Assembly (NCBI GenBank): GCA_038043025.1
Contig: JBBTCW010000006.1
Coordinates: 26,710 to 90,709 of the forward strand
DNA: 64,000 nt
Origin: Pseudomonadota bacterium
Lineage (GTDB): Bacteria; Pseudomonadota; Gammaproteobacteria; UBA12402
Reading direction: 5' to 3'
Shown here: positions 9,024-49,531 of the stretch, in pieces
How the letters are laid out: each line of letters begins with the position of its first letter
How positions within the stretch are numbered: the first letter of the stretch is position 1
Translations under genes and position numbers: made by a program
The notes under the pieces: model-generated
Database searches by the model: none
What the model was told of the DNA's origin: nothing
The model's input: the letters and a program-made list of their open reading frames with translations, nothing else

Positions 9024-9036
9024 TGGGGGTGCGAAA

Positions 9037-10935: not shown

Positions 10936-11059
10936 GATTATTCAGATTATTGTAGCGATTGATATTGCTAATACAAGAAAAATATAGGGCGTTAAGGAGG
11001 GTAAGGGCCGCATTTGTTCATATTTTGAACACGTTATTATTAGTTGTTGCAAATGCTTT

Positions 11060-18476: not shown

Positions 18477-18503
18477 ATTATGTGAAAAAGGGGCTTGTTT
18501 TAT

Positions 18504-19601: not shown

Positions 19602-20059
19602 AAATAAATCAGCCCATGATCGATGGGGTCTATGTTACACCGCTTAAAAAATTTACGGATGAGCGGGGGATGGTGATGCATATATTGAGTGATATGCAAT
19701 TATCTACTGTTCGAGAAGTCTATGCATCGCTTATCAAAAGCACGGCGATCAAAGCCTGGAAGCGTCATCATAAGATGGTGCAACATTATGCCGTTCCGAT
19801 TGGTAAAATTAAATTAGTATTATTTGACAATCGTCTGAATTCTTCTACCCATAATAGGGTTCAGGAAATAGTGACAGGCATTGATTATTATGGTCTCATT
19901 CAAATTCCGCCCATGGTTTGGTATGGTTTTGAAAGTTTATCAGATGGAGATTCGTTGATTGTTAATGGCGCTTCTTTGCCACATGACCCAAATGAGGTTG
20001 ATTGCTTAGATAAAAATACTCGGGAAATTCCGTATGTATGGGGTGATAATTTAAATTGA
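19589..20059 (+). CDS. RmlC-like cupin NDP-sugar epimerase/isomerase (dTDP-4-dehydrorhamnose 3,5-epimerase family, short form)
   Basis: YVTPLKKFTDERGMVMHIL resembles the RmlC/FdtA cupin family. 156 aa, overlaps the rfbG stop. Confidence 0.5.
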   Translation: MGAIEINQPMIDGVYVTPLKKFTDERGMVMHILSDMQLSTVREVYASLIKSTAIKAWKRHHKMVQHYAVPIGKIKLVLFDNRLNSSTHNRVQEIVTGIDYYGLIQIPPMVWYGFESLSDGDSLIVNGASLPHDPNEVDCLDKNTREIPYVWGDNLN

Positions 20060-24910: not shown

Positions 24911-26047
24911 ATGGCGATTACAGAATGCAGGGTTTGTGGTTATGGTTTTTTTGATGAGCCATTGCTGCAATATGCTAATATGCCAAAATCTGCTCAATTT
25001 TTACCCGTTGCGGCTTCTTTGAAAAATGATGAGGGTGTCGATCTAAATGTCTATCAATGCGCAGCTTGTGGTTTAGTGCAGTTGAATAGTCATCCAGTGC
25101 ATTATTACAGGGATGTCATACGTGCAGCCGCCTTTTCAGAGGAAATGAGAAAATTTCGATTGGATCAATTCGCTGGGTTTATCAAGCAGCACAATCTTGT
25201 TCAAAAAAAAGTCATCGAGATTGGGTGTGGGCGAGGGGAGTATTTATCACTTATTCGTGATTGTCATGTGGATGCTTATGGAATAGAAAATTCTGCAGCG
25301 TCAGTGGCATATTGCATTAAACATAAACTTAATGTTTTTCAAGACTTTATTGAGAGCAATGAACAGAAGGTTGCGCATGCTCCATTTGATGCGTTTTTGA
25401 TGTTAAGTTTTTTAGAACATCTGCCTCAGCCCAATGCGATACTTCAAGGAATATGCCGAAATTTGGCTGATGATGCCGTCGGGATTGTGGAAGTGCCAAA
25501 TTTTGATATGATTATTAAAAAGAAGCTTTTTTCTGAATTTATCAGTGATCACCTGTTTTATTTTACGCGAGATACGTTAATTGCGATCCTACAGTTAAAT
25601 GGATTTGACGTATTGGAATGTAAAAATGTGTGGTATGATTACATCCTTTCCGCAGTTGTCAAAAAACGAACACGTATGAGTTTGTCAGTGTTTTATAAAT
25701 CGCAAGAACAGTTGCAACAACGGGTTAGTGATTATCTGGATGGCTTTGGCGATCAAAAGGTAGCCATCTGGGGGGCGGGGCATCAGGCATTAGCGATGAT
25801 GTCTTTGATGCGCTTAGAAGATAGAATCAAATATGTGGTTGATTCTGCGCCGTTTAAGCAGGGCAAATATACCCCTGCCACGCATATCCCTATTGTGTCG
25901 CCTGAAATGTTGAATGTCGATCCTGTTGATGCGGTGATTGTAATGGCAGCCAGTTATTCAAATGAAGTTGTGCAAACATTGCGAAAAAATTTCAATAAAA
26001 ACTTAAATGTTGTTGTGTTAAAAGAGCATGATTTAGTAACAGCGTGA
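24911..26047 (+). CDS. NDP-hexose C-methyltransferase (TylC3-like; Zn-ribbon + SAM MTase + C-methyltransferase C-terminal domain)
   Basis: N-terminal Cys pairs CRVCG...CAACGLVQL typical of the TylC3 family zinc-binding domain. SAM motif VIEIGCGRGEY. C-terminal Rossmann-like IWGAGHQALAMMS. Confidence 0.65.
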   Translation: MAITECRVCGYGFFDEPLLQYANMPKSAQFLPVAASLKNDEGVDLNVYQCAACGLVQLNSHPVHYYRDVIRAAAFSEEMRKFRLDQFAGFIKQHNLVQKKVIEIGCGRGEYLSLIRDCHVDAYGIENSAASVAYCIKHKLNVFQDFIESNEQKVAHAPFDAFLMLSFLEHLPQPNAILQGICRNLADDAVGIVEVPNFDMIIKKKLFSEFISDHLFYFTRDTLIAILQLNGFDVLECKNVWYDYILSAVVKKRTRMSLSVFYKSQEQLQQRVSDYLDGFGDQKVAIWGAGHQALAMMSLMRLEDRIKYVVDSAPFKQGKYTPATHIPIVSPEMLNVDPVDAVIVMAASYSNEVVQTLRKNFNKNLNVVVLKEHDLVTA

Positions 26048-26103
26048 GATTTTTTAAAGAGAGAAATTTTCATTGCGTGTGGTTGAGTTGTTGAAAAATT
26101 AAT

Positions 26104-27216
26104 GTGAGGCATAAAGTGTTAGATCAAAATTTACGTCAGAGTGAAATAGAAAAGCGTAATCAATTACAACATAACAAGCCGCGTGTTTATGAGAAAATTA
26201 CACGGTTTAAAGATAAAGTTGAACGAGGAGAAAGTATTGCTATTATTCAATTTCAATATAATTATCAATGCAATTTTCGTTGTGAGCATTGTTCAATAAA
26301 AGGGTTTCAAGGCAAACAGGACAAGAGAAAATTTACGATAGAAGATGTAAAAAAGCTTTCATATGAGGCGGATGAAATGGGTTTGGCGCATTTGGTGATT
26401 ACGGGGGGGGAGCCGTTAATTTTTAAAGATTATGATGCATTGATAGCGGCTATTGATCCCAGCAAATTTTATATTAGTTCTGATACAAATGGTTGGTTTT
26501 TAGATGCTGAAAGAGCGCGTCATCTTAAAGAGATTGGCGTGGATAAAATTCAATTGAGTCTTGATAGCCTTGATGCGGATTCTCACGATGCGTTTAGAGG
26601 AGCGCCCGGATCACATGCGCGCGCGTTACGTGCGATTGATGCAGCGCAGAATGCTGGCTTAAATATTATTGTACAAACGGTTGTCACAAAGACCCGATTG
26701 CATACGGATGAATTTATTCGTTTTTTAGAGTTTTTAAATGCTAAAAATGTTGGCGTATTTGTGACTTATGCCAAACCTGTAGGCGCGTGGGAAGGGCATT
26801 TTGAAGAATTGGTTGATCTTGATGACATGGCTTATATGCGAGAGCTCGAGAAAAAACATAATGTATTTACGCATTTAACGCCGTCTTATGGATTGGATTT
26901 AGGTTGCTTAGCAGTTAAGCGAATGATTTCTGTTACACAATACGGTGATGTTTTGCCTTGCCCATATATTCATACATCGATAGGGAACGTATTTCAAGAG
27001 TCATTACAAAAGATTATTAATCGAGGGTTAAGTATTAAATATTTTGGCGAATATGTGGAGACTTGTTTGATCGCAGAAGATAGAAAATTTATCCATGATT
27101 ATGTGGTGAAAAAAATATATGGCAAGCCATTACCTGTTCCATATGATGAGGTGTTTGATGCGGAGAGCGATTATATAAAAGATAAGGTTGATGCGGCTTG
27201 GGTAGAGGTAGAGTAG
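26104..27216 (+). CDS. Radical SAM protein with SPASM/twitch-like C-terminal domain
   Basis: CNFRCEHC (CX3CX2C) and GGEPL motifs. C-terminal GDVLPCPY is SPASM-like. Apparent GTG start. Confidence 0.65.
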   Translation: MRHKVLDQNLRQSEIEKRNQLQHNKPRVYEKITRFKDKVERGESIAIIQFQYNYQCNFRCEHCSIKGFQGKQDKRKFTIEDVKKLSYEADEMGLAHLVITGGEPLIFKDYDALIAAIDPSKFYISSDTNGWFLDAERARHLKEIGVDKIQLSLDSLDADSHDAFRGAPGSHARALRAIDAAQNAGLNIIVQTVVTKTRLHTDEFIRFLEFLNAKNVGVFVTYAKPVGAWEGHFEELVDLDDMAYMRELEKKHNVFTHLTPSYGLDLGCLAVKRMISVTQYGDVLPCPYIHTSIGNVFQESLQKIINRGLSIKYFGEYVETCLIAEDRKFIHDYVVKKIYGKPLPVPYDEVFDAESDYIKDKVDAAWVEVE

Positions 27217-28286
27217 TGGAAAATTTAATAACGGTCATCGTTCCTGTTTATAATGCAGAGCAATATTTGCATCAGTGTTTGAGCAGCGTTGTGTGCCAGA
27301 CTTATCGCAATATAGAAGTGGTGCTGGTGGATGATGGATCCACCGATGGTGGCAGCAAAATATACAATGAATATGCGCTTGATGATAATCGAATTAAGAT
27401 AATTCGTACAGAAAATAATGGCCCCGCATCGGCCAGGAATCGGGCAATAAAAATTGCGCGTGGTGAATTTTTGTTTTTTCTTGATGCAGATGATTTTCTT
27501 GAACGAGATTCGCTAGCTGTATTGATTGAGTGGCATAAAGAAACGGGCGCTGATGTGATTATTGGTGGGTTCAATAAAATCAGAAATGACCATAGTGTTG
27601 TGCCTCAGAATATTTATTTAGATAAACAATTATTAGATTTATCGAGTGTTGCGCGGTATGCGATGCAATATTTGGAGAGACCTAATCGATTTTTGCTATT
27701 TGCCTATTCTTGGGGGAGGTTGTTTAAGACATCTATTGTGGAAGATAATAACATATTGTTTGATGCCGCGTTGCATACGTTTGAAGATGTAAAATTTAAT
27801 TTCGCATATTTACAATATGCAAAGAAAGTTTTTTATTCGGATAAGATTGTTTATAACCACTTAGCCCATGATAATTACGCATCGGCCACCATGGCAGTGT
27901 GCGATAATCCAAAAAAATTATTGGGATACCAACAGGCATTGAACGGCATAGAAGATTTCTTGAAAAGTCAGGGCGTTAATGAGGGCGTTAGAAAACAAAA
28001 AATGGGGCATGCATATATTTATTTAACTATTATTCAGTTAGTCCGTCTATGCGGGCAAATTACGACGCATAACCGGGGAAATATTTTTTTGCTGGTCAAG
28101 CAAGTGATTAATGATCCGCTGCTTCAGGTATATTTGCCCTGTTATTCTCCGTCTGGAAAAGATAGTCGAGTGCTTCCTGCATTAATGAAGTTAAAATTGA
28201 CATCGGCAATTATATGGCTTTGCCAATATAAGGCACAGAAAAGATATCAGAAAGCGGGTGTTGTTGGTACATGTGAGCGAAGGTAA
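27198..28286 (+). CDS. Glycosyltransferase family 2
   Basis: VIVPVYNAEQYL...VVLVDDGSTDG and LDADD (DXD) motifs. Confidence 0.7.
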   Translation: MGRGRVVENLITVIVPVYNAEQYLHQCLSSVVCQTYRNIEVVLVDDGSTDGGSKIYNEYALDDNRIKIIRTENNGPASARNRAIKIARGEFLFFLDADDFLERDSLAVLIEWHKETGADVIIGGFNKIRNDHSVVPQNIYLDKQLLDLSSVARYAMQYLERPNRFLLFAYSWGRLFKTSIVEDNNILFDAALHTFEDVKFNFAYLQYAKKVFYSDKIVYNHLAHDNYASATMAVCDNPKKLLGYQQALNGIEDFLKSQGVNEGVRKQKMGHAYIYLTIIQLVRLCGQITTHNRGNIFLLVKQVINDPLLQVYLPCYSPSGKDSRVLPALMKLKLTSAIIWLCQYKAQKRYQKAGVVGTCERR

Positions 28287-28290
28287 GTCG

Positions 28291-29496
28291 ATGTTGCAAT
28301 TTATTGAGGATATTAAAAGTCAAAAACGCCCCGTCGTAATATTTGGTGCAGGTATTGTAGGCGAAGTATTGTTTTGGGCGTGTCAACATTTTAAGTTAGA
28401 GGTGCACTCTTTTTGTGATAATAATGTTAATAAAACAAAAAGCACTTTATGCGGTATTGATGTTATTCTTACATCTGAATTAAGTGCGAAACATAATAAT
28501 CCCATTATCCTGATATCTGCTGCAGACATTCAAGATGTTGTTTTGCAATTACAGGAATTGGGATATGAAGAGTGGTATTCTTGCGCTTCTTTTTTAAGAG
28601 CATTTGATGTCTTTCAATACAAATTTAGTGCGCCATCCGATTTTGCTGACTATGCTGTTGCGACAGCCATCTTGTGTCATGATAGTTATCTAACGCCAGA
28701 CAAGCTTTTTTTGAGAAGCGTTGATATTGTTATCACTGAGCGCTGCTCTTTGAAATGTAGACATTGCTCAAATCTAATGCAATATTATAAGCACCCAAAA
28801 GACTGTAGCATGGAAGAGGTATTGCGGGATATTAATGCTTTTTGCTCAGTTGTGGATGAGGTGAATGAGTTTCGTTTAATAGGTGGTGAGCCTTTTATGA
28901 ATAAGGATTTCCACGTGATATTAGATAGGTTGGTCAATGAGGCAAAAGCAAAAAAGGTGGTTATCTATACGAATGGCACCATTATTCCCCAGACGCATCA
29001 GCTTGAATCTTTAAAGGATAAAAAAGTGCTGGTTATCATTACGGATTATGGAGAATTGTCTAGAAACTTACAGAAATTGCTTGATGTGTTAAAAGTTAAC
29101 ACTATTAATTTTTATTTGCATAAGGTAGAAGGATGGACAGATTGCGCAAGCATCGTGAAACATGCGCGCGCACTCGTGCAGCAAAAAGAACTGTTTAGGA
29201 AATGCTGTGCAAAAAATACGACGACTTTATTGGGAGGAAAATTATATCGCTGTCCTTTCGCTGCCAATATTCATCGGCTTGGGGCAGTGTTGAATTGTAA
29301 GCATGATTATATTGATTTTTTTAAAGAACCTCAGGCTCTTGAGTTTATGAAAAAGAGTATTAAAGAATATTTGTTGCAAAAAGAATTTCTTGAGATATGT
29401 GACTATTGTGATGGGCGATCTTTTGGGGACGCAGAGATCGCGCCGGCGGCACAAATCAAGCAGCCTTTGGTGTGCGATGAAATTGAAACATTTTAA
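28291..29496 (+). CDS. Radical SAM protein with N-terminal Rossmann-like domain and Cys-rich C-terminus
   Basis: VVIFGAGIVGEVL N-terminus; CSLKCRHC (CX3CX2C); IGGEPFMN; additional C-terminal Cys residues (CPFAAN, CDYCDG). Start chosen at an internal ATG with an RBS; the ORF could begin at 28258. Confidence 0.55.
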   Translation: MLQFIEDIKSQKRPVVIFGAGIVGEVLFWACQHFKLEVHSFCDNNVNKTKSTLCGIDVILTSELSAKHNNPIILISAADIQDVVLQLQELGYEEWYSCASFLRAFDVFQYKFSAPSDFADYAVATAILCHDSYLTPDKLFLRSVDIVITERCSLKCRHCSNLMQYYKHPKDCSMEEVLRDINAFCSVVDEVNEFRLIGGEPFMNKDFHVILDRLVNEAKAKKVVIYTNGTIIPQTHQLESLKDKKVLVIITDYGELSRNLQKLLDVLKVNTINFYLHKVEGWTDCASIVKHARALVQQKELFRKCCAKNTTTLLGGKLYRCPFAANIHRLGAVLNCKHDYIDFFKEPQALEFMKKSIKEYLLQKEFLEICDYCDGRSFGDAEIAPAAQIKQPLVCDEIETF

Positions 29497-29514
29497 GATA
29501 GAGGGTTATATAAA

Positions 29515-31227
29515 TTGAATATACTGTTTATTTTTCCGCTTAATGAGCCATATAATAGCATAGTAAATGCGACTCAAACGCCGTGGAAATCCAAATTAAG
29601 CGCATATAAAAACATAAAAAAACTAGATTGCGCCTATCCAACCGGATTATTGTCTATTGCGGCGTATGTTAAAAAAAGTATTCCGGATGTTAATATAAAG
29701 ATTTTAGACATTAATGCGGTGATGGTTCGTGTCGCACAGAGAAAAAATGAGTGCTCGGAGAGCTTTGACGAATATACACGTGAAGATTTGTTAAAAGAAG
29801 CTTTATCTAATCTTGATGGCTTTGCTCCAGATATTATCGGGATTTCTTTGTTGTTTTGTAGTAATTATCGGGATTTGGGCGCGCTGGCATTTTTTTTGCG
29901 AAAAGCATATCAAGAAAGTTTGATTGTTTGTGGTGGGCACCTAGCCTCGGCGAGCTATGATCGTATATATGAGGATGATTTTGAAATTGATGCAATTGTA
30001 TTTGGTGAGGGTGAGCGGCCGTTGCTTGAACTGACACAAGCCAGGCTAGAGGAGAAGCAAGTACAATATTTAGAGGAAAGCCCCTCATGGGTGACAAAAG
30101 AAAAAGCGCAGTCGAAATCGAAGTTTATTCCTGAGAATAAAGTGATTGTTGATTTGGATGAGATTCCTCCTTTTGATTTAAGTATGTTGATATTTTCTGA
30201 TGTCTATTTTAATTCGACAAGATATTTTTTTGTCATTGACTCTCAATCCAATCACAATGAAATGTTTATATTTTCAACACGCGGGTGTCCTTATAAATGT
30301 GTATTTTGTGCGTCTCAAAATGTACACGGCCATAAAGTAAGATCTTATAGTGTAGATAGGATAAAACAAGATATTTTGTATTATCATGAAAAATATAATA
30401 TCGATAGATTTATTTTTTATGATGACCATTTTTTAATTTATAAAAAAAGAGCTATCGAGATATTAAATTTCATTTCACAAAAACATCTTATTGCCGAAGT
30501 TCCTACGCCAGCTTTTTTTTCGATTAATAAAGAAACCGCTGCAGCCATGCGGCAAGCGGGTATAAAAGAAGTGAACATTACGATTGAAAGCGGCAATAGT
30601 GATACGTTAAAAAATATTATACATAAACCGGGGGATTTAAAGAGGGCAGAGGAGGCAGTCGATTGTCTTCATCGAGAAGGCATTGTGGTTGTTTCGAATA
30701 TTTTGATTGGGTTGCCGGGCGAAACAGCGCAATCGATTGATAAGGGATTGGCATATTTAATGACAACCGAGATCGATTGGTTTCAATGTTTTGTTGTTGC
30801 GCCGCTTCCCGGGAGTGAATTATATAAAATCTGCGAAGAAAATGATTATTTGGTTAGGAATTATGATTTATCCACAATGGATTACAAAAAATGTTTAATT
30901 AAAACTAAGGATTTTGATCCAACATATATTGAAAACAAAGCATATGAGATGAATTTAATCCTAAACTTTGTCAATAATTACAATATGCGACAAGGAAAAT
31001 ATGATTTGGCATTGCGACTTTTTGAAAGAGTGATTAATACTGTAATAGATACACATGCCTTTGCATATTATTATGCGGCCATATGTTGTAAACAATTAAG
31101 TTTAGACGATAAATATCTTGTGTATAAAAGGAAATATGAGGAAATGATTGAAAGATTTATATTTTGGAACGCTTATGCTGACAAGTTTAAATTAAAACAA
31201 TTAAGTTCTATTGATGTTTTGATGTGA
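29515..31227 (+). CDS. Cobalamin-binding (class B) radical SAM protein
   Basis: N-terminal B12-binding-like domain followed by STRGCPYKCVFCAS (CX3CX2C... wait: CPYKCVFC). 570 aa. Confidence 0.65.
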   Translation: MNILFIFPLNEPYNSIVNATQTPWKSKLSAYKNIKKLDCAYPTGLLSIAAYVKKSIPDVNIKILDINAVMVRVAQRKNECSESFDEYTREDLLKEALSNLDGFAPDIIGISLLFCSNYRDLGALAFFLRKAYQESLIVCGGHLASASYDRIYEDDFEIDAIVFGEGERPLLELTQARLEEKQVQYLEESPSWVTKEKAQSKSKFIPENKVIVDLDEIPPFDLSMLIFSDVYFNSTRYFFVIDSQSNHNEMFIFSTRGCPYKCVFCASQNVHGHKVRSYSVDRIKQDILYYHEKYNIDRFIFYDDHFLIYKKRAIEILNFISQKHLIAEVPTPAFFSINKETAAAMRQAGIKEVNITIESGNSDTLKNIIHKPGDLKRAEEAVDCLHREGIVVVSNILIGLPGETAQSIDKGLAYLMTTEIDWFQCFVVAPLPGSELYKICEENDYLVRNYDLSTMDYKKCLIKTKDFDPTYIENKAYEMNLILNFVNNYNMRQGKYDLALRLFERVINTVIDTHAFAYYYAAICCKQLSLDDKYLVYKRKYEEMIERFIFWNAYADKFKLKQLSSIDVLM

Positions 31228-31269
31228 AAAGTAATTTAGTTTTTAAAAATTTATAATTAGGAGGGAATC

Positions 31270-32820
31270 ATGCGAATATTGTTTATTAGGAATTCTTGTA
31301 CGCTCATGTCGCATTCTCAGCTAGGCTACGGTATGGGCATCGTGGCGACGATAGCGCATGCGGCCGGACATGAGGTAAAGGCAATAGACAATAATACATT
31401 ATACAAATTTTATAAGAACAAAGATTTTTTTAAGATAATAAAATCATATAAACCAGATATTATTGCCTATGGGCTAACATTGCATAATGCTTATGAGACC
31501 TATCAACAAATTTCAAAACTTAAAATTAAGTTTAAAAATATAACCATTATTGCTGGTGGGATACATATGAGGCATTGTTTTGACGAGGCTTTGCGTCATG
31601 GTGTTGATGTGGTGGTGAATAGGGAGGGGGAAAAAGTTATTGTGCCTCTCTTAGAGCATTTGGAACGGCACGGGGAGGATTATAAAAATGATCTCGATTT
31701 GATTGCTGGAGTTTCCTTTGTGCGCCAGGATGGGCGGTTTCATTTTTCCAAAGAATATCCTGCCGTAGAAAACTTAGATGATGTTCCTGTGGTAAATTAC
31801 GAGTTGTTTAATATTCAGGATTTTATAAAAACGGGGACAGAGGCGGGATTGTTTTATTTTACGGGACAGAGGGGCTGTCCATTTAAATGCACGTTTTGTT
31901 CTGATGCAGTTCATAATTTAGATAAAAGATGTTCTTCTGCGGACTGGTTGTTTAAGAACGTTCGTTATTTGCATGAGAAATATCAAGTGAGTTATTTGCT
32001 TATTGCAGATAATAATTTTACCTTTCCTCGGAAGCGGGCGGTTGAGTTTTGTAGAAAAATGATCGATTCTGGGTTAAGTAAAAAATTGACATTTTCTTGT
32101 CAAACAAACACACGATTTCCATTGGATGAGGAGCTTGTTTGTTTGATGAGGGAGGCAGGGTTCTGTAGAATTAATTTTGGGTTAGAGCGCCTAACGACTT
32201 ATTCATTGCAAAAGATAAACAAAATGCAACCTTTTCAAGGGGTGCACGATGCGTTGACGTTGGTTTCTAAGCATAATATAGACCCGTCAATTTTCATGAT
32301 GATTGGTTTTCCTTTTGAAACTGAAGAGTTATTAGAGCAAGAGAAAGAATTGTTCTTAGATCTCAAAAAATATACGCATCGATTGTTTCTTTCAGTATTA
32401 TGTCCTATGCCTGGCACTATGTATTATGATGGCTCGCCAAAAATTAAAGAGTGGTATTTAAATCGAGATGCATATTTAATGTTTCGGGCATATTTTACGA
32501 ACGTGTTAGATATGCATACATTTAACACTATTGAGAGAAACTTTTTTAACCTATCTAAGCCTGTTCAGCACGCGCTTAAGAATTATTATTTGCTATTTAA
32601 AAAGATAACCCACGGCTCTGTTTTTAATAAAAAAACGCCGCTATTGTCATTATGTTTAAACTTAGATTTTTTGGTTGCTAAAATATCTCAAGCTTGCTTT
32701 TATTTTTCCCCCTCGCTTGAGTTCTTTATTTTCAATCATATAAAATCCTTGAGATATTATGCGGGTAATTATTTTCTTTCCGGCTATATGTTAAAAAAGA
32801 ATCTGGTAGCTGACGAATAA
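31270..32820 (+). CDS. Cobalamin-binding (class B) radical SAM protein
   Basis: GQRGCPFKCTFCSD radical SAM motif after an N-terminal B12-binding-like domain. Paralogous in layout to the upstream gene. Confidence 0.65.
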   Translation: MRILFIRNSCTLMSHSQLGYGMGIVATIAHAAGHEVKAIDNNTLYKFYKNKDFFKIIKSYKPDIIAYGLTLHNAYETYQQISKLKIKFKNITIIAGGIHMRHCFDEALRHGVDVVVNREGEKVIVPLLEHLERHGEDYKNDLDLIAGVSFVRQDGRFHFSKEYPAVENLDDVPVVNYELFNIQDFIKTGTEAGLFYFTGQRGCPFKCTFCSDAVHNLDKRCSSADWLFKNVRYLHEKYQVSYLLIADNNFTFPRKRAVEFCRKMIDSGLSKKLTFSCQTNTRFPLDEELVCLMREAGFCRINFGLERLTTYSLQKINKMQPFQGVHDALTLVSKHNIDPSIFMMIGFPFETEELLEQEKELFLDLKKYTHRLFLSVLCPMPGTMYYDGSPKIKEWYLNRDAYLMFRAYFTNVLDMHTFNTIERNFFNLSKPVQHALKNYYLLFKKITHGSVFNKKTPLLSLCLNLDFLVAKISQACFYFSPSLEFFIFNHIKSLRYYAGNYFLSGYMLKKNLVADE

Positions 32821-32830
32821 CGGAGCGGGT

Positions 32831-33772
32831 ATGTCAAAAAAATTAATTAGCATTATGAGTAATTGTTATAACGAAGAAGAAAATGTTGATGAATTCTATC
32901 AGCAAATTAAAGAAATCATGATGTCCTATCAAGATAAATATGAGTATGATCATCTTTTTATGGATAATTCTTCAACGGATGGAACGGTAAAAAAAATTAA
33001 AGCTATTATTGAAAAAGATAAACATGTGCGACTCATCGTAAATACACGAAATTTTGGACAGATCCGTTCCCCTTATTATGGGATATTGCAAGTAAAGGGA
33101 GATGCTGTTGTGAGCTTGGCAACCGACTTTCAAGATCCTCCGTATTTGATTAGGGAATTTATAGCGAAGTGGGAAGAGGGATATAAAAATGTTATTGGGG
33201 TGAAACATAAAAGCAAAGAAAATAAAATAATGTTTTTTATTAGAAAGTTTTTCTATCGCTTGATAGCGAAAATATCCGAAGTAGATCTGGTTGAAAACTT
33301 TACTGGTTTTGGTCTTTATGACAAACAGTTTATTGATGTTTTACGCGGTCTTGATGATCCTTATCCTTATTTTCGTGGATTGATTGCTGAATTAGGGTTT
33401 AGTCGTGCTGAAATATCATATGCTCAGCCGAAACGAGAGAGAGGGACATCGACTAATAATTGGTATAGTTTATATGATCTTGCTATGCTGGGTTTTGTGA
33501 ATCATTCGAAGTTGCCTCTGCGTTTGTCGAGTTTTTTAGGATTTTTTGTATCATTTGTTTGTGTTGTTATTGCAATAGTTTATTTTATTTATAAGCTGCT
33601 TTTCTGGTCTTCTATTCAGATGGGTATTGCACCACTTATTATTGGTATGTTTTTCTTTGGTGGCGTGCAATTATTTTTTCTTGGTATTATTGGTGAATAT
33701 GTGGGGGCAATATTTACGCAGGTAAAAAATCGTCCGTTGGTTATTGAAAGGGAGCGGGTTAATTTTGATTAA
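32831..33772 (+). CDS. Polyprenyl-phosphate glycosyltransferase (GT2, GtrB/ArnC/DPM1-like) with C-terminal TM helices
   Basis: ISIMSNCYNEEENV...DNSSTDGT GT2 signature. Two C-terminal hydrophobic helices, typical of GtrB-like enzymes. Confidence 0.65.
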   Translation: MSKKLISIMSNCYNEEENVDEFYQQIKEIMMSYQDKYEYDHLFMDNSSTDGTVKKIKAIIEKDKHVRLIVNTRNFGQIRSPYYGILQVKGDAVVSLATDFQDPPYLIREFIAKWEEGYKNVIGVKHKSKENKIMFFIRKFFYRLIAKISEVDLVENFTGFGLYDKQFIDVLRGLDDPYPYFRGLIAELGFSRAEISYAQPKRERGTSTNNWYSLYDLAMLGFVNHSKLPLRLSSFLGFFVSFVCVVIAIVYFIYKLLFWSSIQMGIAPLIIGMFFFGGVQLFFLGIIGEYVGAIFTQVKNRPLVIERERVNFD

Positions 33773-34250
33773 TACAATAAAAAAACATATTTTTAACGAA
33801 CGATTTTCTAAATTCTTTTTAATCGGCATTTGGAACGCGGCATTTGGTGTCGGTGTTTTTTCCTTATTATATTATTGGTTTCATCAATATGTTAATTATA
33901 TGATTTTAGTGATCATCACTAATATTTTAGCCATTACTAATGCATATATCTGTTATAAGTTAGTTGTTTTTAAGACGAAGGGCAACTATGTTAAGGAGTA
34001 TTTAAGGTTTTATATCGTGTACGGTTTTGCATTTGCTGTGAGTTTATTGCTTTTCCCGCTTTTTATGGAAGTGGTCTTTCCTTTTTTGGCAGCGCATATG
34101 CCAAATTATTATGGTATCTTTAATTACAAGGCTTATTTGTCGCAACTTGTCATTACTAGTATCACCATGTTTGTCAGTTATTTTGGGCATCTTAAGGTTT
34201 CTTTTCGTGAGGAAGCCTCTTCAGAGGTGTTGCCCGATGGAGAAGGTTGA
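33744..34250 (+). CDS. GtrA-family small membrane protein
   Basis: 168 aa with about 4 TM helices (FLIGIWNAAFGVGVF...). Positioned after a GtrB-like gene. Confidence 0.55.
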   Translation: MKGSGLILINTIKKHIFNERFSKFFLIGIWNAAFGVGVFSLLYYWFHQYVNYMILVIITNILAITNAYICYKLVVFKTKGNYVKEYLRFYIVYGFAFAVSLLLFPLFMEVVFPFLAAHMPNYYGIFNYKAYLSQLVITSITMFVSYFGHLKVSFREEASSEVLPDGEG

Positions 34251-36055
34251 AAGTTATGATTAAACTATCGGATTATGTTGCAAAATTTATTGTAGATAAA
34301 AAAATAAAAAATTTGTTTTTATTGCCGGGTGGCGGATGTATGCATTTAGTTGATTCATTTGGTTGTCGTTCGGAGATTAAAAAGATTTGTTGTCTTCACG
34401 AGCAGGCGGCAGTCATCGCGGCAGATGCATGTAGTCAATACACCAATGATTTTGGCGTTGCGCTGGTGACAACAGGCCCGGGCGCGACAAATGCGATTAC
34501 AGGTGTTGCAGGGGCTTGGATCGATTCGGTTCCGATGATGGTGATTTCAGGCCAAGTGAAACGGCAAGACATGATGGGTCAGAGCAGATTGCGACAAAAG
34601 GGCGTTCAAGAAGTCGATATTATTACGATGGTGAAATCAATTACTAAATATGCTGTGACCGTGATGGATCCACAGCGCATTCGATATCATTTAGAAAAAG
34701 CCTATTGTTTAGCGCGCACGGGTTGTTCGGGTCCTGTTTGGATTGATATTCCATTGGATGTGCAGGGTGCAATGATCGAGGAGGATGCGTTAGAGCAGTT
34801 TATTCCTGCGCAAATCACTCGGCCGGATTTATCAGATCAAATAGATCATGTAGTCGATTTATTAAATCAGGCTAAACGACCGGTTCTTTTGGTTGGGAAT
34901 GGTGTGCGTTTGTCACATGGCATGTCAGAATTTTATGAATTAATTGACGCATTGAACATTCCTGTGTTAACCACTTGGAAATCAATCGATTTTTTATCGG
35001 AAGACCACCCGTTATTTTTTGGTCGCCCCGGGTCGATTGGACAACGTTATGCGAATTTGATTCAGCAAAATAGTGATTTATTCATAACCATTGGTGCGCG
35101 TCTTGATTTGGCGCAGATTGGTTATAATTATGGATGGGTCGCGCGTGAAGCGAGAAAAGTAGTGGTCGATGTTGATCAAGCGCAAATTGATAAAATGAGT
35201 GACATGCATATTGATGTGAGTGTTTGCGCGGACGCAAAGAATTTTATTAATCATCTGCTGGTAAAACAAAATGTAATCAATCGGTCGGATAGAAAAAAAT
35301 GGTTTGATCAATGCAAGATATGGAAGCAAAAATATCCCGTCATATTGTCAGCTTATTATGATGAGAAAAATTATGTTAATACCTATGTGTTGGTTGATAT
35401 CTTATCTGAACTATTGACAGAAGATGATGTGTTGGTGCCCGGAAGTTCAGGGAGTTGTAGTGAAATATTATCACAAGCATTTAAGGTGAAAAAAGGACAG
35501 CGAATTTTTAATAATCCGGGTTTAGGATCAATGGGATATGGATTGCCGGCGAGCATGGGTGCATGTGTTGCGAGCGGTAAGCGGACGATTACCGTGATTG
35601 GAGATGGTGGTTTGCAGCATAATATTCAAGAGTTGGAGACGATCCATCGATTGCAATTGCCGTTGAAAATATTTATTTTAAATAATAATGGTTATGCGTC
35701 GATTCGAAATATGCAGCGCAATTATTTTGATAAAAATTATATGTGCTGTGATCCATCGTCTGGCTTAACGGTGCCAAATACTTGTGATGTTGCATCGGCG
35801 TATAAAATCGCAACAACCCGAATTTATAATCATGAAAACATGAAAGAAAAAATAATGGCGGTTTTGCAAAGCAAGGGACCGATGATATGCGATGTGATGG
35901 TGAATCCTGATTTAATTACAGCGCCGCGTTTGTCTTCTGAAGTTAATAAAGATGGAAAAATCACATCGAAGCCGCTCGAAGATTTATGGCCATTTTTGGA
36001 TCGAGATGAATTTTTAGCGAATATGTTGGTGCCGGTGCTTGAGGCAAGTGAATGA
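34247..36055 (+). CDS. Thiamine-diphosphate-dependent enzyme of the acetolactate synthase/YerE-like family
   Basis: 602 aa. ThDP motif GDGGLQHNIQELETI...NNNGY. N-terminal TPP_enzyme_N-like TTGPGATNAITG. Confidence 0.7.
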   Translation: MKVMIKLSDYVAKFIVDKKIKNLFLLPGGGCMHLVDSFGCRSEIKKICCLHEQAAVIAADACSQYTNDFGVALVTTGPGATNAITGVAGAWIDSVPMMVISGQVKRQDMMGQSRLRQKGVQEVDIITMVKSITKYAVTVMDPQRIRYHLEKAYCLARTGCSGPVWIDIPLDVQGAMIEEDALEQFIPAQITRPDLSDQIDHVVDLLNQAKRPVLLVGNGVRLSHGMSEFYELIDALNIPVLTTWKSIDFLSEDHPLFFGRPGSIGQRYANLIQQNSDLFITIGARLDLAQIGYNYGWVAREARKVVVDVDQAQIDKMSDMHIDVSVCADAKNFINHLLVKQNVINRSDRKKWFDQCKIWKQKYPVILSAYYDEKNYVNTYVLVDILSELLTEDDVLVPGSSGSCSEILSQAFKVKKGQRIFNNPGLGSMGYGLPASMGACVASGKRTITVIGDGGLQHNIQELETIHRLQLPLKIFILNNNGYASIRNMQRNYFDKNYMCCDPSSGLTVPNTCDVASAYKIATTRIYNHENMKEKIMAVLQSKGPMICDVMVNPDLITAPRLSSEVNKDGKITSKPLEDLWPFLDRDEFLANMLVPVLEASE

Positions 36056-36927
36056 AGATATTGATTACAGGGGGCGCTGGTTTTATTGCAAAAAGTTTGT
36101 TTGATGAGCTTAATCAATTGTACGATGTAATTCTTTGTTCTCGAACAGATCTTGATTTGCTGGAGCCACAAGCCGTTTTTGAATATATTAAACGCTTTCA
36201 GTTTGATGTTGTTATTCATGCGGCGACTTATGATGCCGCGCCAACCTGTTCGATAAAAAATCCAAGCAAAGTATTAGAAAATAATTTGAAAATGTTTTTT
36301 AATATTGTGCGTTGTCAGAATTATTTTGGGAGATTAATTTATTTTGGCTCAGGAGCTGAATATGATCGTAATTATTGGGTGCCTAAAATGAAGGAAAGTT
36401 ATTTCGATCGACATATCCCGACTGATCAATATGGGTTTTCAAAATATATTATGACTAAATATATGCAGCACAGTAAAAATATTTATAATCTCAGGTTGTT
36501 TGGTGTGTTTGGGAAATACGATGATTGGCGCTATCGTTTTATTCCCAATGCTTGTTGCAGAGCTTTATTGGGTCGGCCTATTGTGATCCGTCAAAATAAG
36601 ATGTTTGATTTTATGTATATTGATGATTTAGTGGAAATAGTAAAATGGATTATATTGGCTCAGCCAATAGAAAATATATATAATGTTTGTTCAGGTCGGG
36701 CGCTTGAACTAAAGGCAATAGCCAAAACAATTGTAGAGGTGTCTGGGAAGCAGTCAGAAATCATTTGTTTGGAGTCGCAATTAGCCAGCGAATATAGTGG
36801 AGATAACGCTTTGCTTTTAAGTGAGCTAAAGGATTTTAGATTTTATGGGATAGAACAGGCCATTCAGAATTTGTATGATTGGTATGCAAGTAATGTATCT
36901 TTAATTTGTGAGGATCAATTGTGTTAA
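36052..36927 (+). CDS. NAD-dependent epimerase/dehydratase/reductase (SDR family)
   Basis: ITGGAGFIAKSL Rossmann motif. 291 aa. YxxxK-like YIMTK. Confidence 0.55.
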   Translation: MKILITGGAGFIAKSLFDELNQLYDVILCSRTDLDLLEPQAVFEYIKRFQFDVVIHAATYDAAPTCSIKNPSKVLENNLKMFFNIVRCQNYFGRLIYFGSGAEYDRNYWVPKMKESYFDRHIPTDQYGFSKYIMTKYMQHSKNIYNLRLFGVFGKYDDWRYRFIPNACCRALLGRPIVIRQNKMFDFMYIDDLVEIVKWIILAQPIENIYNVCSGRALELKAIAKTIVEVSGKQSEIICLESQLASEYSGDNALLLSELKDFRFYGIEQAIQNLYDWYASNVSLICEDQLC

Positions 36928-37439
36928 ATAATATTACGATACATGATGCCATTGCGTTTTTGGAACATCAAGTTGTGAATTCGTCCAAAGGGTTGCCGCA
37001 GGAATTATTTTTCTTTGTGACTCGAATGACGCCTATGGTAAATGTTGATTTGTTGGTGAGAGATGAAACAGGGCGAATTTTATTGGCGTGGCGCGATGAC
37101 CAATTTGCTGGAGCAGGTTGGCATGTTCCCGGAGGCATTATTCGGTTTAAAGAAACGATGATGACGCGTTTGTTAAAGATAGCTGACACTGAAATTGGTG
37201 CTGTTGTTGAACTAGATGCAGCGCCCATTGCCATTAATGAAGTTATTTGTGAACATGACACGCGAGGACATTTTATTTCTGTTTTATATCGAGGATATCT
37301 ATCGAGTAAATTTGAACCTAAAAATATGGGTTTGAAAGATACGGATCCTGGTTATCTGGCGTGGCATTCAGTATGTCCTAATAATCTTGTGACGGTGCAT
37401 GAGATGTATAGAATTTATTTGAACAATGAAAAATGTTAG
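36921..37439 (+). CDS. Nudix-hydrolase-like protein (degenerate Nudix box)
   Basis: GGIIRFKETMMTRLLKIADTEIG approximates the Gx5Ex7REUxEExGU Nudix box. Size about 170 aa, similar to GDP-sugar hydrolases. Confidence 0.4.
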   Translation: MLNNITIHDAIAFLEHQVVNSSKGLPQELFFFVTRMTPMVNVDLLVRDETGRILLAWRDDQFAGAGWHVPGGIIRFKETMMTRLLKIADTEIGAVVELDAAPIAINEVICEHDTRGHFISVLYRGYLSSKFEPKNMGLKDTDPGYLAWHSVCPNNLVTVHEMYRIYLNNEKC

Positions 37440-38733
37440 GGTTGTTATAATGCTTAAAAATGCATTGTCTTTTTTCATACCACATAAGCGATTCAATATT
37501 TTTTCGGGGACGAATACTTGGAAAGAGTGGAGGATGTTTTTTTGTTCTTATTTTACATTCGGGTCTTATCAGGATGAGTCTGTAATTGATGATTATGAAA
37601 AAGCGTTTGCAAAAGCATCGGATACTATTCATGCGATTAGTTTTGGCGCGGGTCGCATGGGGTTATATGCTATCTTAGAGGCGTTGGGGTTGCAGATGGG
37701 CGATGAAATTATTCTGCCAGCATTTACTTGCGTGGTCGTGCCCAATGCCATTATCTATCGAGGACTTAAGCCCATTTATGTTGATATTGATCCCGTTACG
37801 TTTAATATAGATGTTTCAAAAATAGAAAAGGCCATTACGTCTCGTACACGTGCGCTATATATTCAACATACGTTTGGTATTATTTGTGATATTGAGAAGG
37901 CGCGAGAAATTGCTGATCGATATAAATTATATCTTGTCGAGGATGCGTGCCATGCGTTGGGCGCTACTTATAAAGGAAAGAAAGCAGGCTCCTTGGCCGA
38001 TGTTGCCTATTTTAGTACGGATCATTCGAAAGTGATCAGTACGGTTTTGGGCGGTATGGTGACAACAAACAATGATGAGTGGGCAACAAAAATACGTGCT
38101 ATTCAGCAATCCTCGCCTTTTTTAACGCGAAAAATGGTTCACAGAGTTATATTAGCTTTTTTAACCGAGTATATGTTGCTTTCTCCTTATGGTGTTTGGT
38201 TGGGACGAAAGTTTTTCGCCGCGCTAGTAAAATTCAAAATGATTTTCTTTTATCATGATGAATTGAAAACAGAGAGGCCGACGGATTATCCTTATCCTTG
38301 TCGGTTGTCGTCGATTCAGGCAAAACTGGGCTTGTCTCAATTGGCTGATTTGGATCGCAATTTAGACTATCGTCGCAAAATAGCATTGTGGTTAGAATCA
38401 AGAATTAAGTGGTATGATGATTTACCTCAAGAATTTTTGCTACAACAAACGTGGATTCGTTATTCTTTTTTAGTGGCGGATAGAAAAAAATTTGAGGCGC
38501 TTTTTTGTCATCATTTTGATTTAGGTATTTGGTTTACGAGTATTTTGCATGGGCGAGTTGATGATTTGGATCAACTGGGTTATATTCAGGGATCATGCCC
38601 GGTGGCAGAATTTGTCGCGCAACATATTGTGAATTTTCCGACACATTTGCGTATTCCTTTAAAATTTTTACAAGATAATTGGTTAGAGTATGAGAAGGTG
38701 GTTTTAACTATGTTGGATAGGACGGTAGTATGA
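37426..38733 (+). CDS. DegT/DnrJ/EryC1-family PLP/PMP-dependent enzyme
   Basis: EDACHALGATYKGK, YFSTDHSKVIS (Lys) and HTFGIICD. Start uncertain; N-terminus atypical. Confidence 0.55.
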   Translation: MKNVRVVIMLKNALSFFIPHKRFNIFSGTNTWKEWRMFFCSYFTFGSYQDESVIDDYEKAFAKASDTIHAISFGAGRMGLYAILEALGLQMGDEIILPAFTCVVVPNAIIYRGLKPIYVDIDPVTFNIDVSKIEKAITSRTRALYIQHTFGIICDIEKAREIADRYKLYLVEDACHALGATYKGKKAGSLADVAYFSTDHSKVISTVLGGMVTTNNDEWATKIRAIQQSSPFLTRKMVHRVILAFLTEYMLLSPYGVWLGRKFFAALVKFKMIFFYHDELKTERPTDYPYPCRLSSIQAKLGLSQLADLDRNLDYRRKIALWLESRIKWYDDLPQEFLLQQTWIRYSFLVADRKKFEALFCHHFDLGIWFTSILHGRVDDLDQLGYIQGSCPVAEFVAQHIVNFPTHLRIPLKFLQDNWLEYEKVVLTMLDRTVV

Positions 38734-39878
38734 TTCGTTTGTCGAAATCTGTTGTGGGAGACCAGGAAGCGATCGCGCTTTCAAAGGTTGTAGCTCATGG
38801 TTATTTAGGGATGGGAGTAGAGGTTCAATTATTTGAGCAAAAATTGCAAGACTATCTGGATTGTTCGGACAGGAAAGTGGTTTGCGTTAATTCCGGGACT
38901 GCGGCATTACATTTAGCGTTACAAGCGTTGGGGCTGGGGGTGGGGGACGAAGTGTTAGTGCCCGCGATGACTTATATCGCTTCTTTTCAAGCGGTTTCTG
39001 CGACAGGTGCAACACCGGTTGCTTGTGATGTACGTTTAGAGAATGGGTTGTTGGATTTGAAAGATGCTCAGAAACGGTTAAGTCCAAAAACCAAAGCACT
39101 CATGTTTGTTCATTATGCGAGTTATTGTGGCGATCTGCAATCTGTTTATGATTTTGCAAAGCAATATAAATTAAGAGTAGTTGAAGATGCAGCACATGCG
39201 TTTGGCTCAATCTATCAAGGCAAAAAAATTGGTAGCTTTGGCGATGTGGTTTGTTTTAGTTTTGATGGGATTAAAAACATTACCTGCGGGGAGGGGGGTG
39301 CCATTGTAAGCGCGGATAGTGCAGTTATTAATAAAGTATTAGATGCACGATTGTTGGGTGTGCATAGAGAGAAGATTGAAAAACTTTCTTCAATGCAATG
39401 CAGTGGTGATTTTGATGTGATGGAGCAGGGATTTCGATATCACATGAGCAACTTAATGGCAGCGATTGGTATCGTGCAATTGAACCGGTTTGAAAAAGAA
39501 TTTAAACCGGCGAGAAGACAGCTGATAAGCTATTATTATGAGCGATTGAAAAATATCCCGGGGATTCAGTTATTGCAAATGGATTTAGATGATATTGTGC
39601 CACATATTATGCCGATGAGGGTTTTGAATGGTCAGCGTGATCGGTTAGGGATATATTTAAAGCAGCATGCAGTCGAGGTTGGAGTTCATTATAAGGCAGC
39701 TCATTTATTGTCCAAATACGGCCATGGTAGACCCCGGTTACCGGCTGCAGAACAATTGGCTGTCGAATTATTGACCTTGCCATTACATCCAGAGCTGAGC
39801 AAGCGGGATATTGATTATATTGTCGATTTAGTGCAGATTTTGTTGTGTGAAAAATCATGTGTTATGAGTGAAAATTGA
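38730..39878 (+). CDS. DegT/DnrJ/EryC1-family sugar aminotransferase
   Basis: SFDGIKNITCGEGGAIV (PLP lysine), EDAAHAFGS and NSGTAALHLAL. Confidence 0.7.
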   Translation: MIRLSKSVVGDQEAIALSKVVAHGYLGMGVEVQLFEQKLQDYLDCSDRKVVCVNSGTAALHLALQALGLGVGDEVLVPAMTYIASFQAVSATGATPVACDVRLENGLLDLKDAQKRLSPKTKALMFVHYASYCGDLQSVYDFAKQYKLRVVEDAAHAFGSIYQGKKIGSFGDVVCFSFDGIKNITCGEGGAIVSADSAVINKVLDARLLGVHREKIEKLSSMQCSGDFDVMEQGFRYHMSNLMAAIGIVQLNRFEKEFKPARRQLISYYYERLKNIPGIQLLQMDLDDIVPHIMPMRVLNGQRDRLGIYLKQHAVEVGVHYKAAHLLSKYGHGRPRLPAAEQLAVELLTLPLHPELSKRDIDYIVDLVQILLCEKSCVMSEN

Positions 39879-49452: not shown

Positions 49453-49531
49453 GCGAAAGTCGCTATTAATTGCCTGATTAAAGGTGGCTTTGCCTGGTGA
49501 ATTATCCCAAATAGATAGAGGCAGAAAGATA

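Follow-up and report, generated by a model that had tools for sequence, protein, structure and literature searches.

YerE-like thiamine diphosphate (ThDP)-dependent enzymes ligate C3 to C8 keto acids to cytidine diphosphate (CDP)-4-keto-3,6-dideoxy-D-glucose, and in the published pathways an aldolase that forms the keto acid is encoded beside the YerE-like enzyme, with a YerF-type reductase acting afterwards (Steitz et al., PMC9306805). The named pathways of this type are those of yersiniose A (YerE/YerF), erwiniose (ErwE/F/I/J), caryophyllose (MMAR_2331-2333), and gastriose (MyGE/MygI/MygF). Another sugar of the same type is aurantose, a branched 14-carbon sugar from Spirochaeta aurantia. It is listed among the presumed products of YerE-like enzymes (PMC12247030), and YerE itself favours pyruvate (PMC9306805, PMC12247030). 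The biosynthesis of long-branched sugars has been rationalised only recently, and so far with aldolase-derived donors only. A survey by Krug et al. 2024 reportedly covers over 200 YerE-like clusters, and the enzyme JanthE is said to be the subject of Lanza et al. 2024. Here we analyse a gene block at positions 24911-39878 of a 64,000-nucleotide stretch of DNA (the window; contig JBBTCW010000006.1 of assembly GCA_038043025.1, from a Pseudomonadota bacterium of the GTDB lineage UBA12402), in which a YerE-like enzyme is encoded together with four radical S-adenosylmethionine (rSAM) enzymes. We tentatively read this block as one copy of a cassette for a nucleotide-activated, C-4-branched 3,6-dideoxyhexose tailored by radical enzymes, a chemistry that we infer, and its product may, with equal caution, be placed in the class of yersiniose, erwiniose, caryophyllose, and gastriose.

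The cassette shares several features with YerE-type pathways, namely genes for CDP-4-keto-3,6-dideoxy-D-glucose, a ThDP enzyme with YerE-like relatives, an adjoining short-chain dehydrogenase/reductase (SDR), an enzyme predicted to form a keto acid, and a location in a surface-glycan locus. It differs in the partner of the ThDP enzyme, which in those pathways is a class II pyruvate aldolase and here is a phosphoenolpyruvate (PEP)-dependent NeuB-family synthase fused to a cupin domain. Unlike the published schemes consulted, it also holds two to five rSAM enzymes, a Gmm-type Nudix protein, and often a C-methyltransferase. We found no description of this cassette in the literature, which was searched without comparison to the survey of Krug et al. 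2024 or to Lanza et al. 2024.

A modular gene cassette is shared by archaea and bacteria

The window derives from a groundwater metagenome (ENA ERZ1292621). A single surface-glycan locus accounts for approximately 59 kb of it, and within it 13 co-directional open reading frames (ORFs) occupy the plus strand of the block, with short or overlapping junctions in the ORF list (Table 1). We classified the window proteins with Pfam and NCBIfam profiles, using the gathering or equivalog score of each family as the cut-off, and these profiles returned the gene families originally predicted for the block at the same coordinates. No NCBIfam equivalog was reached by any rSAM enzyme, the ThDP enzyme, the NeuB-cupin protein, the SDR, or the family 2 glycosyltransferases (GT2s) of the block.

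For comparison with other genomes we used 80 loci from species-representative genomes together with further neighbourhoods of homologues of the rSAM enzyme encoded at 28291, hereafter the anchor rSAM, and compared them by BLASTP with all window proteins. Counts out of 51 refer to loci with long flanks and to genes within 10 kb of an anchor-type rSAM gene, and counts out of 36 to the related loci with a ThDP gene. The anchor rSAM has more than 1800 homologues in 627 clusters at 50% identity (E<=1e-30), none of which bears a functional name.

In Desulfobacterota, Nitrospirae, and Victivallales the genes form an operon with the order RfbF-RfbG-RfbH-NeuB-cupin-haloacid dehalogenase (HAD) phosphatase (approximately 200 amino acids)-ThDP-GT2-rSAM-rSAM-Nudix-rSAM-SDR, the third rSAM enzyme of which has a true SPASM domain. 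The window represents a second variant that lacks this third rSAM and has the C-methyltransferase, the short SDR, and B12-binding rSAM enzymes instead; it is common to Omnitrophota, Elusimicrobia, Planctomycetes, Nanoarchaeia, a Pseudomonadota metagenome-assembled genome (MAG), and a Thermodesulfobacterium-like contig. The gene set is also found in Patescibacteria and Methanoperedens, its carriers include Thermodesulfobacterium sp. TA1 and Victivallis vadensis, and it is common in the small genomes of candidate phyla radiation (CPR) bacteria and DPANN archaea, where it lies beside ATP-binding cassette (ABC) or Wzx-type glycan export genes. Protein identities across cassette copies range from 50 to 76%. 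Window proteins are 52-69% identical to those of a Methanoperedens MAG, and the second rSAM enzyme, encoded at 26104, is 68-76% identical to proteins of Firmicutes, Omnitrophota, Pacearchaeota, and Nanoarchaeota. Such high identities across domains point to a modular cassette that has probably spread horizontally among archaea and bacteria.

The clustering of four rSAM genes within five neighbouring genes is, by our rough estimate, far above chance, and the same clustering recurs in unrelated genomes. Against textbook O-antigen loci the block is unusual. It is nevertheless no isolated case, being a single copy of a cassette that is widespread. As the carriers range from CPR bacteria, DPANN archaea, and Omnitrophota to sulfate reducers and gut Victivallis, its product may be a surface determinant that is common, yet unrecognised, among anaerobic and uncultivated microbes.

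The idea that the block moves as a unit fits part of this distribution. The ThDP/NeuB part and the rSAM part occur together in at least 20 loci, spanning two lineages of archaea and some nine groups of bacteria, but in betaproteobacterial loci (Sulfuricella, Dechloromonas, Propionivibrio, and Pseudothauera) a GT2-rSAM-rSAM-Nudix module stands alone, without ThDP, NeuB, or Rfb genes. Conversely, Lentisphaerae and Myxococcales carry the ThDP and NeuB genes with GtrB, without the second rSAM or Nudix. These partial copies are what would be expected if two pathways travelled together, with RfbF/G/H, NeuB, ThDP, and SDR making one sugar and the GT2-rSAM pair, the second rSAM, and Nudix making or modifying another sugar of the same glycan, aided by the C-methyltransferase and B12-binding rSAM enzymes or by the SPASM rSAM. 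Since both modules form one co-directional operon in at least 20 loci and are interleaved in the window-like variant, we regard two separate pathways as a rather unlikely explanation and continue with a single cassette.

A protein search of a plasmid collection returned only remote rSAM relatives, at 22-25% identity on an approximately 36-kb plasmid of Brachyspira hyodysenteriae and at 32% in Nonomuraea, and no NeuB-cupin protein; the Brachyspira plasmid relatives of the anchor rSAM carry a radical SAM annotation. Some copies have additional genes. In a Methanoperedens MAG (L007, 5746-8916) and an Elusimicrobia MAG (L011), three extra genes lie directly upstream of the GT2-rSAM pair and, by reading of their sequence, encode a putative cyclase, a 6-phosphogluconate-dehydrogenase-like protein, and an FGGY sugar kinase, which hints at a dedicated sugar-phosphate supply. 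The cultured species Pseudothauera nasutitermitis has the rSAM module only (L062); here a 629-amino-acid protein (3112-4998) carries a SPASM-type domain ahead of its rSAM core and is adjoined by a polysaccharide pyruvyl transferase.

Genes for a YerE acceptor sugar accompany a YerE-like ThDP enzyme

The original prediction had tied the block to CDP-hexose genes elsewhere in the window, and this was borne out, as the three Rfb proteins pass their NCBIfam cut-offs: RfbF with 305 bits against 300, RfbG with 466 against 278, and RfbH with 722 against 423. Together they are predicted to form the route to CDP-4-keto-3,6-dideoxy-D-glucose, the acceptor of YerE. A homologue of RfbH with at least 45% identity is present in 22 of the 36 ThDP-carrying loci. 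The small cupin encoded at 19589-20059 matches the Pfam family dTDP_sugar_isom with 23.7 bits, below the cut-off.

The ThDP enzyme comprises three TPP domains and scores below every acetolactate-synthase equivalog cut-off. Its best match in the PDB is 8rph (402 bits), followed by 5ahk (288 bits), which we take to be PpYerE, and true acetolactate synthases reach no more than 251 bits; on these scores the YerE-like designation given to it originally stands. The CDGG of the 8rph chain aligns to GDGG in the window protein, and a CDG motif is the hallmark described for JanthE (PMC12247030). A YerE-like assignment is thus supported through PDB relatives. The short SDR (PF01370, 104.7 bits) is encoded directly 3' of the ThDP gene both in the window and in L008, L010, L011, and L050. 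By analogy with the scheme in PMC9306805, we propose that it is the counterpart of YerF and would reduce the branch carbonyl.

The composition of the cassette in related loci shows that the functional unit is larger than the block as first delimited. It extends left to at least 18495, taking in the genes from RfbG to the minus-strand NeuB-cupin gene (23202-24731), which lies just outside the original boundary, and right to RfbF at 42719-43504. A scan for promoters and terminators between 23 and 42 kb found no excess over shuffled sequence (71 against 70 promoters; 13 against 14.2 terminators), a result that one long operon could give but that is no proof of it.

Two further genes lie within this span. 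An OmpA-like beta-barrel outer-membrane protein is encoded on the minus strand at 40966-41607, where its gene separates the tailoring block from the nucleotidyltransferase genes, and shows that the host is diderm. The mannose-1-phosphate guanylyltransferase at 41808-42722 corresponds to no more than the N-terminal half of the bifunctional guanylyltransferase/phosphomannose isomerase (GMP/PMI) model, without the isomerase cupin, and no homologue of it was found in the related loci.

A NeuB-family synthase may supply a long branch donor

The NeuB-cupin protein matches the NeuB family (PF03102) with 138.5 bits against a cut-off of 22.1, and also Cupin_2. It stays below the equivalog level (TIGR03569, 136 against 400 bits; TIGR03586, 128 against 340 bits) and keeps E-x-x-N-H, KxQ, KIxS, STH, and ERH motifs, which we take to be those of the family. 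Residues 8-339 match the uncharacterised PDB entry 3g8r with 399 bits, and the C-terminal cupin has a weak match to D-lyxose and L-ribose isomerases in the PDB. The system resembles those of NeuB, PseI, and LegI, and of KDN-9-phosphate synthase with its HAD phosphatase, in its TIM-barrel motifs, in having a Nudix nucleoside diphosphate (NDP)-sugar hydrolase, and in the phosphatase neighbour of other copies. It is unlike NeuB, PseI, and LegI in that a metal cupin replaces the C-terminal SAF domain, no cytidine monophosphate (CMP)-synthetase is linked, and a ThDP enzyme is.

Of the 36 loci, 21 have a NeuB-family gene no more than 1.2 kb away from the ThDP gene and on its strand; seven more have one elsewhere in the locus, and three of the others end at the ThDP gene. 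The gene that follows the NeuB-family gene in related loci usually encodes a phosphatase, not a CMP-synthetase. Because a homologue of the CMP-nonulosonate synthetase accompanies the cassette in only 3 of the 51 loci, the NeuB product is probably an intermediate and not a glycosyl donor. The predicted CMP-nonulosonate route of the window lies elsewhere, with a separate canonical NeuB and CMP-synthetase within 5634-14689. The products of NeuB enzymes are 3-deoxy-2-ulosonic acids, a kind of alpha-keto acid. From the adjacency of the NeuB and ThDP genes and the scarcity of CMP-synthetases, we infer that the ThDP enzyme receives its donor from the NeuB-type enzyme and that the branch would be much longer than two carbons. 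A cassette in which a NeuB-type synthase is coupled to a YerE-like enzyme would widen the aldolase-donor scheme and predict new sugar structures.

The two-carbon, pyruvate-derived branch put forward originally is, by the same adjacency, probably not what the cassette makes; the adjacency points to a keto acid of greater length, like the donors for erwiniose, caryophyllose, and gastriose (PMC9306805). Were YerE chemistry to add an acetyl branch from pyruvate here, the product would be a yersiniose-type sugar that the rSAM enzymes and the C-methyltransferase methylate or epimerise, and the NeuB-cupin gene would belong to a separate nonulosonate pathway. This accords with the preference of YerE for pyruvate (PMC9306805, PMC12247030), with the complete-looking legionaminic/neuraminic-type set at 5634-14689, which has its own NeuB and CMP-synthetase, and with the B12-binding rSAM architecture, which is that of known C-methylases. 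It does not account for a NeuB-family gene that adjoins the ThDP gene in most related loci and usually has a phosphatase, and no CMP-synthetase, after it. Moreover, the best-conserved rSAM enzymes are not B12-dependent, one of them having a dehydrogenase fold, and the B12-binding ones are accessory and missing from many copies. We therefore consider a two-carbon branch unlikely.

We are equally doubtful of the most far-reaching version of the long-branch reading, by which the cassette would build a sugar of approximately 13 to 15 carbons, the NeuB-made ulosonic acid being joined by the ThDP enzyme to the CDP-ketosugar and the product oxidised, methylated, or cyclised by rSAM enzymes without oxygen. 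As part of that same low-probability reading, the glycosyltransferase-coupled twitch rSAM would form a new enzyme class and the cassette would have spread horizontally among archaea, CPR bacteria, and many anaerobic phyla, whose cell surfaces would commonly bear this decoration.

The cassette holds three large families of rSAM enzyme, one coupled to a GT2

All seven ORFs originally listed as rSAM genes of the locus (1099, 26104, 28291, 29515, 31270, 55455, and 62774) contain the CX3CX2C motif; the last encodes a YgiQ-type housekeeping protein (PF08497, 451 bits) and lies beyond the end of the glycan locus, so that not all seven belong to it. The four in the block exceed the PF04055 cut-off of 29.5 bits (26104, 89.5; 28291, 50.7; 29515, 78.4; 31270, 60.0), which confirmed them as radical SAM proteins by profile. 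They had been described as consecutive, but a GT2 gene splits the first from the other three. No rSAM enzyme reached the cut-off of a characterised family in NCBIfam, and the cassette holds three large rSAM families without an assigned reaction, one of them coupled to a protein of glycosyltransferase fold. It would offer oxygen-independent, C-H-functionalising enzymes for carbohydrate chemistry.

The anchor rSAM has the fold of the twitch dehydrogenases SpeY and BtrN, with an rSAM core and a single auxiliary-cluster twitch domain, at approximately 15% sequence identity to SpeY. Its N-terminus is a small Rossmann domain similar to those that bind NDP-sugars (Pfam C2185-like_N). Close relatives of SpeY- and BtrN-type enzymes can be epimerases, and the anchor rSAM most likely oxidises or epimerises a secondary alcohol of a sugar, judging from its fold. 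Unlike SpeY (spectinomycin) and BtrN (butirosin), it has this extra N-terminal Rossmann-like domain and an obligatory GT2 partner, and its family lies in envelope-glycan loci of many phyla and not in actinomycete antibiotic clusters.

The partner GT2 (PF00535, 132.7 bits) keeps its DDGS and DADD motifs. Natural fusions of the two proteins, in both orders, occur in at least eight protein clusters (P0362, P0397, P0439, P0458, P0460, P0442, P0498, and P0482), and a ninth, shorter protein (P0462, 492 amino acids) retains only about 76 residues of the GT2. The GT2 and the anchor rSAM are therefore physically coupled and work as a unit.

The rSAM enzyme at 26104 had been assigned to the SPASM type. 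Its score with Pfam SPASM is just above the cut-off (25.5 against 21.5 bits), but after the SAM cluster it has only three cysteines, invariant among 32 homologues, and not the seven-cysteine SPASM motif, so that its C-terminal domain is better described as twitch-like.

The two class B enzymes, 'a' at 29515 and 'b' at 31270, exceed the cut-off of the B12-binding family PF02310 (44.7 and 44.1 bits against 32.1) and have the motifs CPYKCVFC and CPFKCTFC, respectively. Their best NCBIfam matches fall far short of family level, with 140 against 575 bits for 'a' (Sden_1168 P-methyltransferase) and 138 against 481 bits for 'b' (BchE). The two cassettes that most resemble the window copy, L011 and L050, carry homologues of 'a' with 68-72% identity, and no homologue of 'b' above 28% identity was found in related loci. 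An N-terminal B12-binding domain followed by an rSAM core is the architecture of GenK, GenD1, Fom3, TokK, HpnJ, and OxsB; here it occurs in a sugar pathway, and, unlike those enzymes, the window proteins reach no characterised family's cut-off. The two enzymes may catalyse C-methylation or rearrangement at unactivated carbons, but their sequences do not discriminate between these and other reactions. The earlier expectation that all rSAM enzymes of the block are methylases or epimerases is accordingly too broad, given the dehydrogenase fold of the anchor rSAM and the low family scores of the B12-binding pair.

That the nearest solved relatives of several cassette enzymes (SpeY, BtrN, AprD4, TokK, BlsE, TylC3, and TcaB9) come from antibiotic pathways could suggest that the block makes a diffusible aminoglycoside- or nucleoside-like metabolite. 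We find this highly improbable in a glycan-assembly context of approximately 60 kb, with GT2 and GT4 enzymes, GtrA/GtrB, nonulosonate genes, and an OmpA-like porin; the small CPR and DPANN genomes likewise carry the cassette beside export genes, and aminocyclitol or scaffold genes are absent. A methylthiotransferase or cofactor-maturation operon was also considered and rejected, as no MiaB/RimO, PQQ, heme, or molybdopterin equivalog scored and sugar genes surround the block.

Within 55455-59811, a third B12-binding rSAM enzyme, encoded at 55455, lies directly upstream of a GT2-GtrA fusion. Its best NCBIfam scores are 236 bits for HpnJ and 215 bits for BchE, both below cut-off. The pair faces a 601-amino-acid membrane protein with weak matches to the putative glycosyltransferase families LIC_10190 and LA_3751 of Leptospira. 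This looks like a second module that combines a radical enzyme with lipid-carrier modification.

Proposed pathway

A five-step pathway would be consistent with these assignments. First, RfbF, RfbG, and RfbH, assigned by family, would convert their substrate to CDP-4-keto-3,6-dideoxy-D-glucose. Second, the NeuB-cupin protein would condense PEP with an aldose provided by its isomerase-like cupin domain to give a 3-deoxy-2-ulosonic acid; a HAD phosphatase gene adjoins NeuB-cupin in most other copies. Third, as suggested by family, neighbourhood, and the published scheme, the ThDP enzyme would decarboxylate the ulosonic acid and attach the resulting acyl-anion equivalent at C-4 of the CDP-ketosugar, after which the adjoining SDR would reduce the branch carbonyl as YerF does. 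Fourth, the unit of GT2 and SpeY/BtrN-like rSAM would oxidise or epimerise a secondary alcohol, with further tailoring by the second twitch rSAM, the TylC3-like C-methyltransferase, the two B12-binding rSAM enzymes, and the two DegT enzymes. The target of this step could be either the branched sugar or the aldose that feeds NeuB-cupin, and the Nudix protein would free the sugar from an NDP-sugar. Fifth, GtrB would load the product on polyprenyl phosphate, and GtrA and a protein similar to C-type glycosyltransferases (GT-C) would place it on the surface glycan.

Several observations weigh against this pathway. The E3 reductase normally needed by an E1 enzyme such as RfbH is absent from both the window and the conserved operons, the sequence of the ThDP enzyme does not reveal which donor it prefers, and ulosonic acids are mostly cyclic in solution and may be poor ThDP donors. 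The window copy itself has no HAD phosphatase, and its NeuB-cupin gene is on the opposite strand. Among the rSAM enzymes, the second has no specific structural match and falls in no characterised family, neither B12-binding enzyme is a member of the class B families (GenK, Fom3, PhpK, HpnJ, HpnR, BchE, KedN5, and others), and the module that stands alone in betaproteobacteria need not act on a branched sugar.

Other tailoring and export proteins of the cassette

The C-methyltransferase exceeds the cut-offs of Methyltransf_23 (63.9 bits) and Methyltransf_14 (58.1 bits), stays below that of Methyltransf_13 (25.4 against 31.3 bits), and contains the CxxC...CxxC zinc motif; it thereby shows the zinc-binding N-terminal, SAM-binding, and C-terminal NDP-sugar-binding domains of the TylC3/TcaB9 type. 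In the PDB it is closest to 4rv9, a TylC3-type mycarose 3-C-methyltransferase, and to TcaB9, in agreement with the TylC3-like identity first proposed. The virenose- or streptose-type product that was suggested along with it has no specific support beyond this enzyme.

The Nudix protein matches PF00293 with 24.9 bits. Its best NCBIfam/PDB match is GDP-mannose mannosyl hydrolase (43 against a cut-off of 146 bits), an overall low Gmm score, and the alignment spans the modified Gmm Nudix box, GGx5Ex7Kx4ExG. This suggests that it may free a sugar from an NDP-sugar, as PseG and LegG do ahead of NeuB-type synthases. The first DegT protein (PF01041, 210 bits) is 25-28% identical to proteins of related loci, and the second (302 bits) scores 253 bits as PseC-like against a cut-off of 423.

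The GtrB-like protein has C-terminal transmembrane helices, scores below cut-off with PgfS (185 bits) and ArnC (106 bits) in NCBIfam, and has homologues of 48-60% identity in about 14 loci. GtrA reaches 42.6 bits with PF04138 (cut-off 26.1). As in Gtr O-antigen modification, a GtrB-like glycosyltransferase is followed by GtrA; unlike in that system, there is no recognisable GtrC, and the sugar would be an elaborate branched one instead of glucose. No GtrC family match was found in the window, only unassigned polytopic membrane proteins at 20196-21884 and 58006-59811. The former has no Pfam or NCBIfam match and consists mostly of hydrophobic segments; it is a candidate GT-C enzyme that would use the polyprenyl-phosphate sugar made by GtrB. 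This arrangement suggests transfer through a polyprenyl-phosphate intermediate onto an extracytoplasmic glycan.

Table 1. Genes of the predicted cassette in the window, and number of loci, of 51, in which each lies near the anchor rSAM gene
Predicted product	Coordinates	Strand	Basis	Loci (of 51)
RfbG, CDP-glucose 4,6-dehydratase (acceptor-sugar supply)	18495..19601	+	NCBIfam TIGR02622	20
Small RmlC-like cupin, candidate CDP-sugar epimerase	19589..20059	+	Weak Pfam match; function from position	
Polytopic membrane protein, candidate GT-C-type transferase	20196..21884	+	Hydrophobic segments	
RfbH (E1), CDP-6-deoxy-D-xylo-4-hexulose 3-dehydrase	21910..23238	+	NCBIfam PRK15407	25
NeuB-family synthase with C-terminal metal cupin, proposed alpha-keto-acid donor maker	23202..24731	-	Pfam NeuB, Cupin_2	22 (fusion)
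TylC3/TcaB9-type NDP-sugar C-methyltransferase	24911..26047	+	Pfam, PDB, zinc motif	14 (~51% identity)
rSAM with twitch-like C-terminal domain (second rSAM), core cassette member	26104..27216	+	PF04055	27 (median 66% identity)
GT2 (GT-A fold), obligate partner of the anchor rSAM	27198..28286	+	PF00535	44 (directly upstream)
Twitch rSAM with N-terminal small Rossmann domain, cassette anchor gene	28291..29496	+	Pfam C2185-like_N	
Class B (B12-binding) rSAM 'a'	29515..31227	+	PF02310 and PF04055	14
Class B (B12-binding) rSAM 'b', accessory	31270..32820	+	PF02310 and PF04055	
GtrB/ArnC/PgfS-like polyprenyl-phosphate GT2	32831..33772	+	PF00535	11
GtrA-family small membrane protein (flippase-associated)	33744..34250	+	PF04138	
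YerE-like ThDP-dependent carboligase (branch-forming, predicted)	34247..36055	+	Three TPP domains, PDB relatives	30
Short SDR, proposed YerF-like branch-carbonyl reductase	36052..36927	+	PF01370; role by analogy	14
Gmm-type Nudix (NDP-sugar glycosyl hydrolase family)	36921..37439	+	PF00293	28 (~51% identity)
DegT-family pyridoxal phosphate enzyme 1, accessory	37426..38733	+	PF01041	
DegT-family sugar aminotransferase 2, accessory	38730..39878	+	PF01041	
RfbF, glucose-1-phosphate cytidylyltransferase (acceptor-sugar supply)	42719..43504	+	NCBIfam TIGR02623	18

Other genes in the window

The legionaminic/neuraminic-type set at 5634-14689 consists of a LegB-like dehydratase, a DegT protein, a NeuC-type 2-epimerase, a canonical NeuB, a PtmE-like CBS-nucleotidyltransferase, a GFO/IDH/MocA protein, a CMP-nonulosonate synthetase, and an SDR, with a SAM methyltransferase on the opposite strand at 10105-10935. 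At the left end of the window (36-3722), a transketolase split into N- and C-terminal halves on two ORFs is followed by an rSAM gene (1099-2229) and then by a fusion of a cytidylyl/adenylyltransferase with PfkB, similar to RfaE/HldE. These genes may constitute a second route to branch- or chain-extended sugars, and locus L058 also has a split transketolase beside its cassette.

Two proteins unrelated to sugar chemistry are encoded within the locus or at its margin, a Schlafen AlbA_2/HATPase_c_4 protein (49484-50950) and an AAA/STAND-like ATPase (PF01637; 60005-61432). The segment 44493-48325 encodes a fusion of a GT2 with a polysaccharide deacetylase (586 amino acids) and a 692-amino-acid protein that combines a weak DegT-like stretch with a FemAB/GNAT-like C-terminus. 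At 53441-55348, an AsnB-type amidotransferase adjoins a UDP-ManNAc-type 2-epimerase and dehydrogenase.

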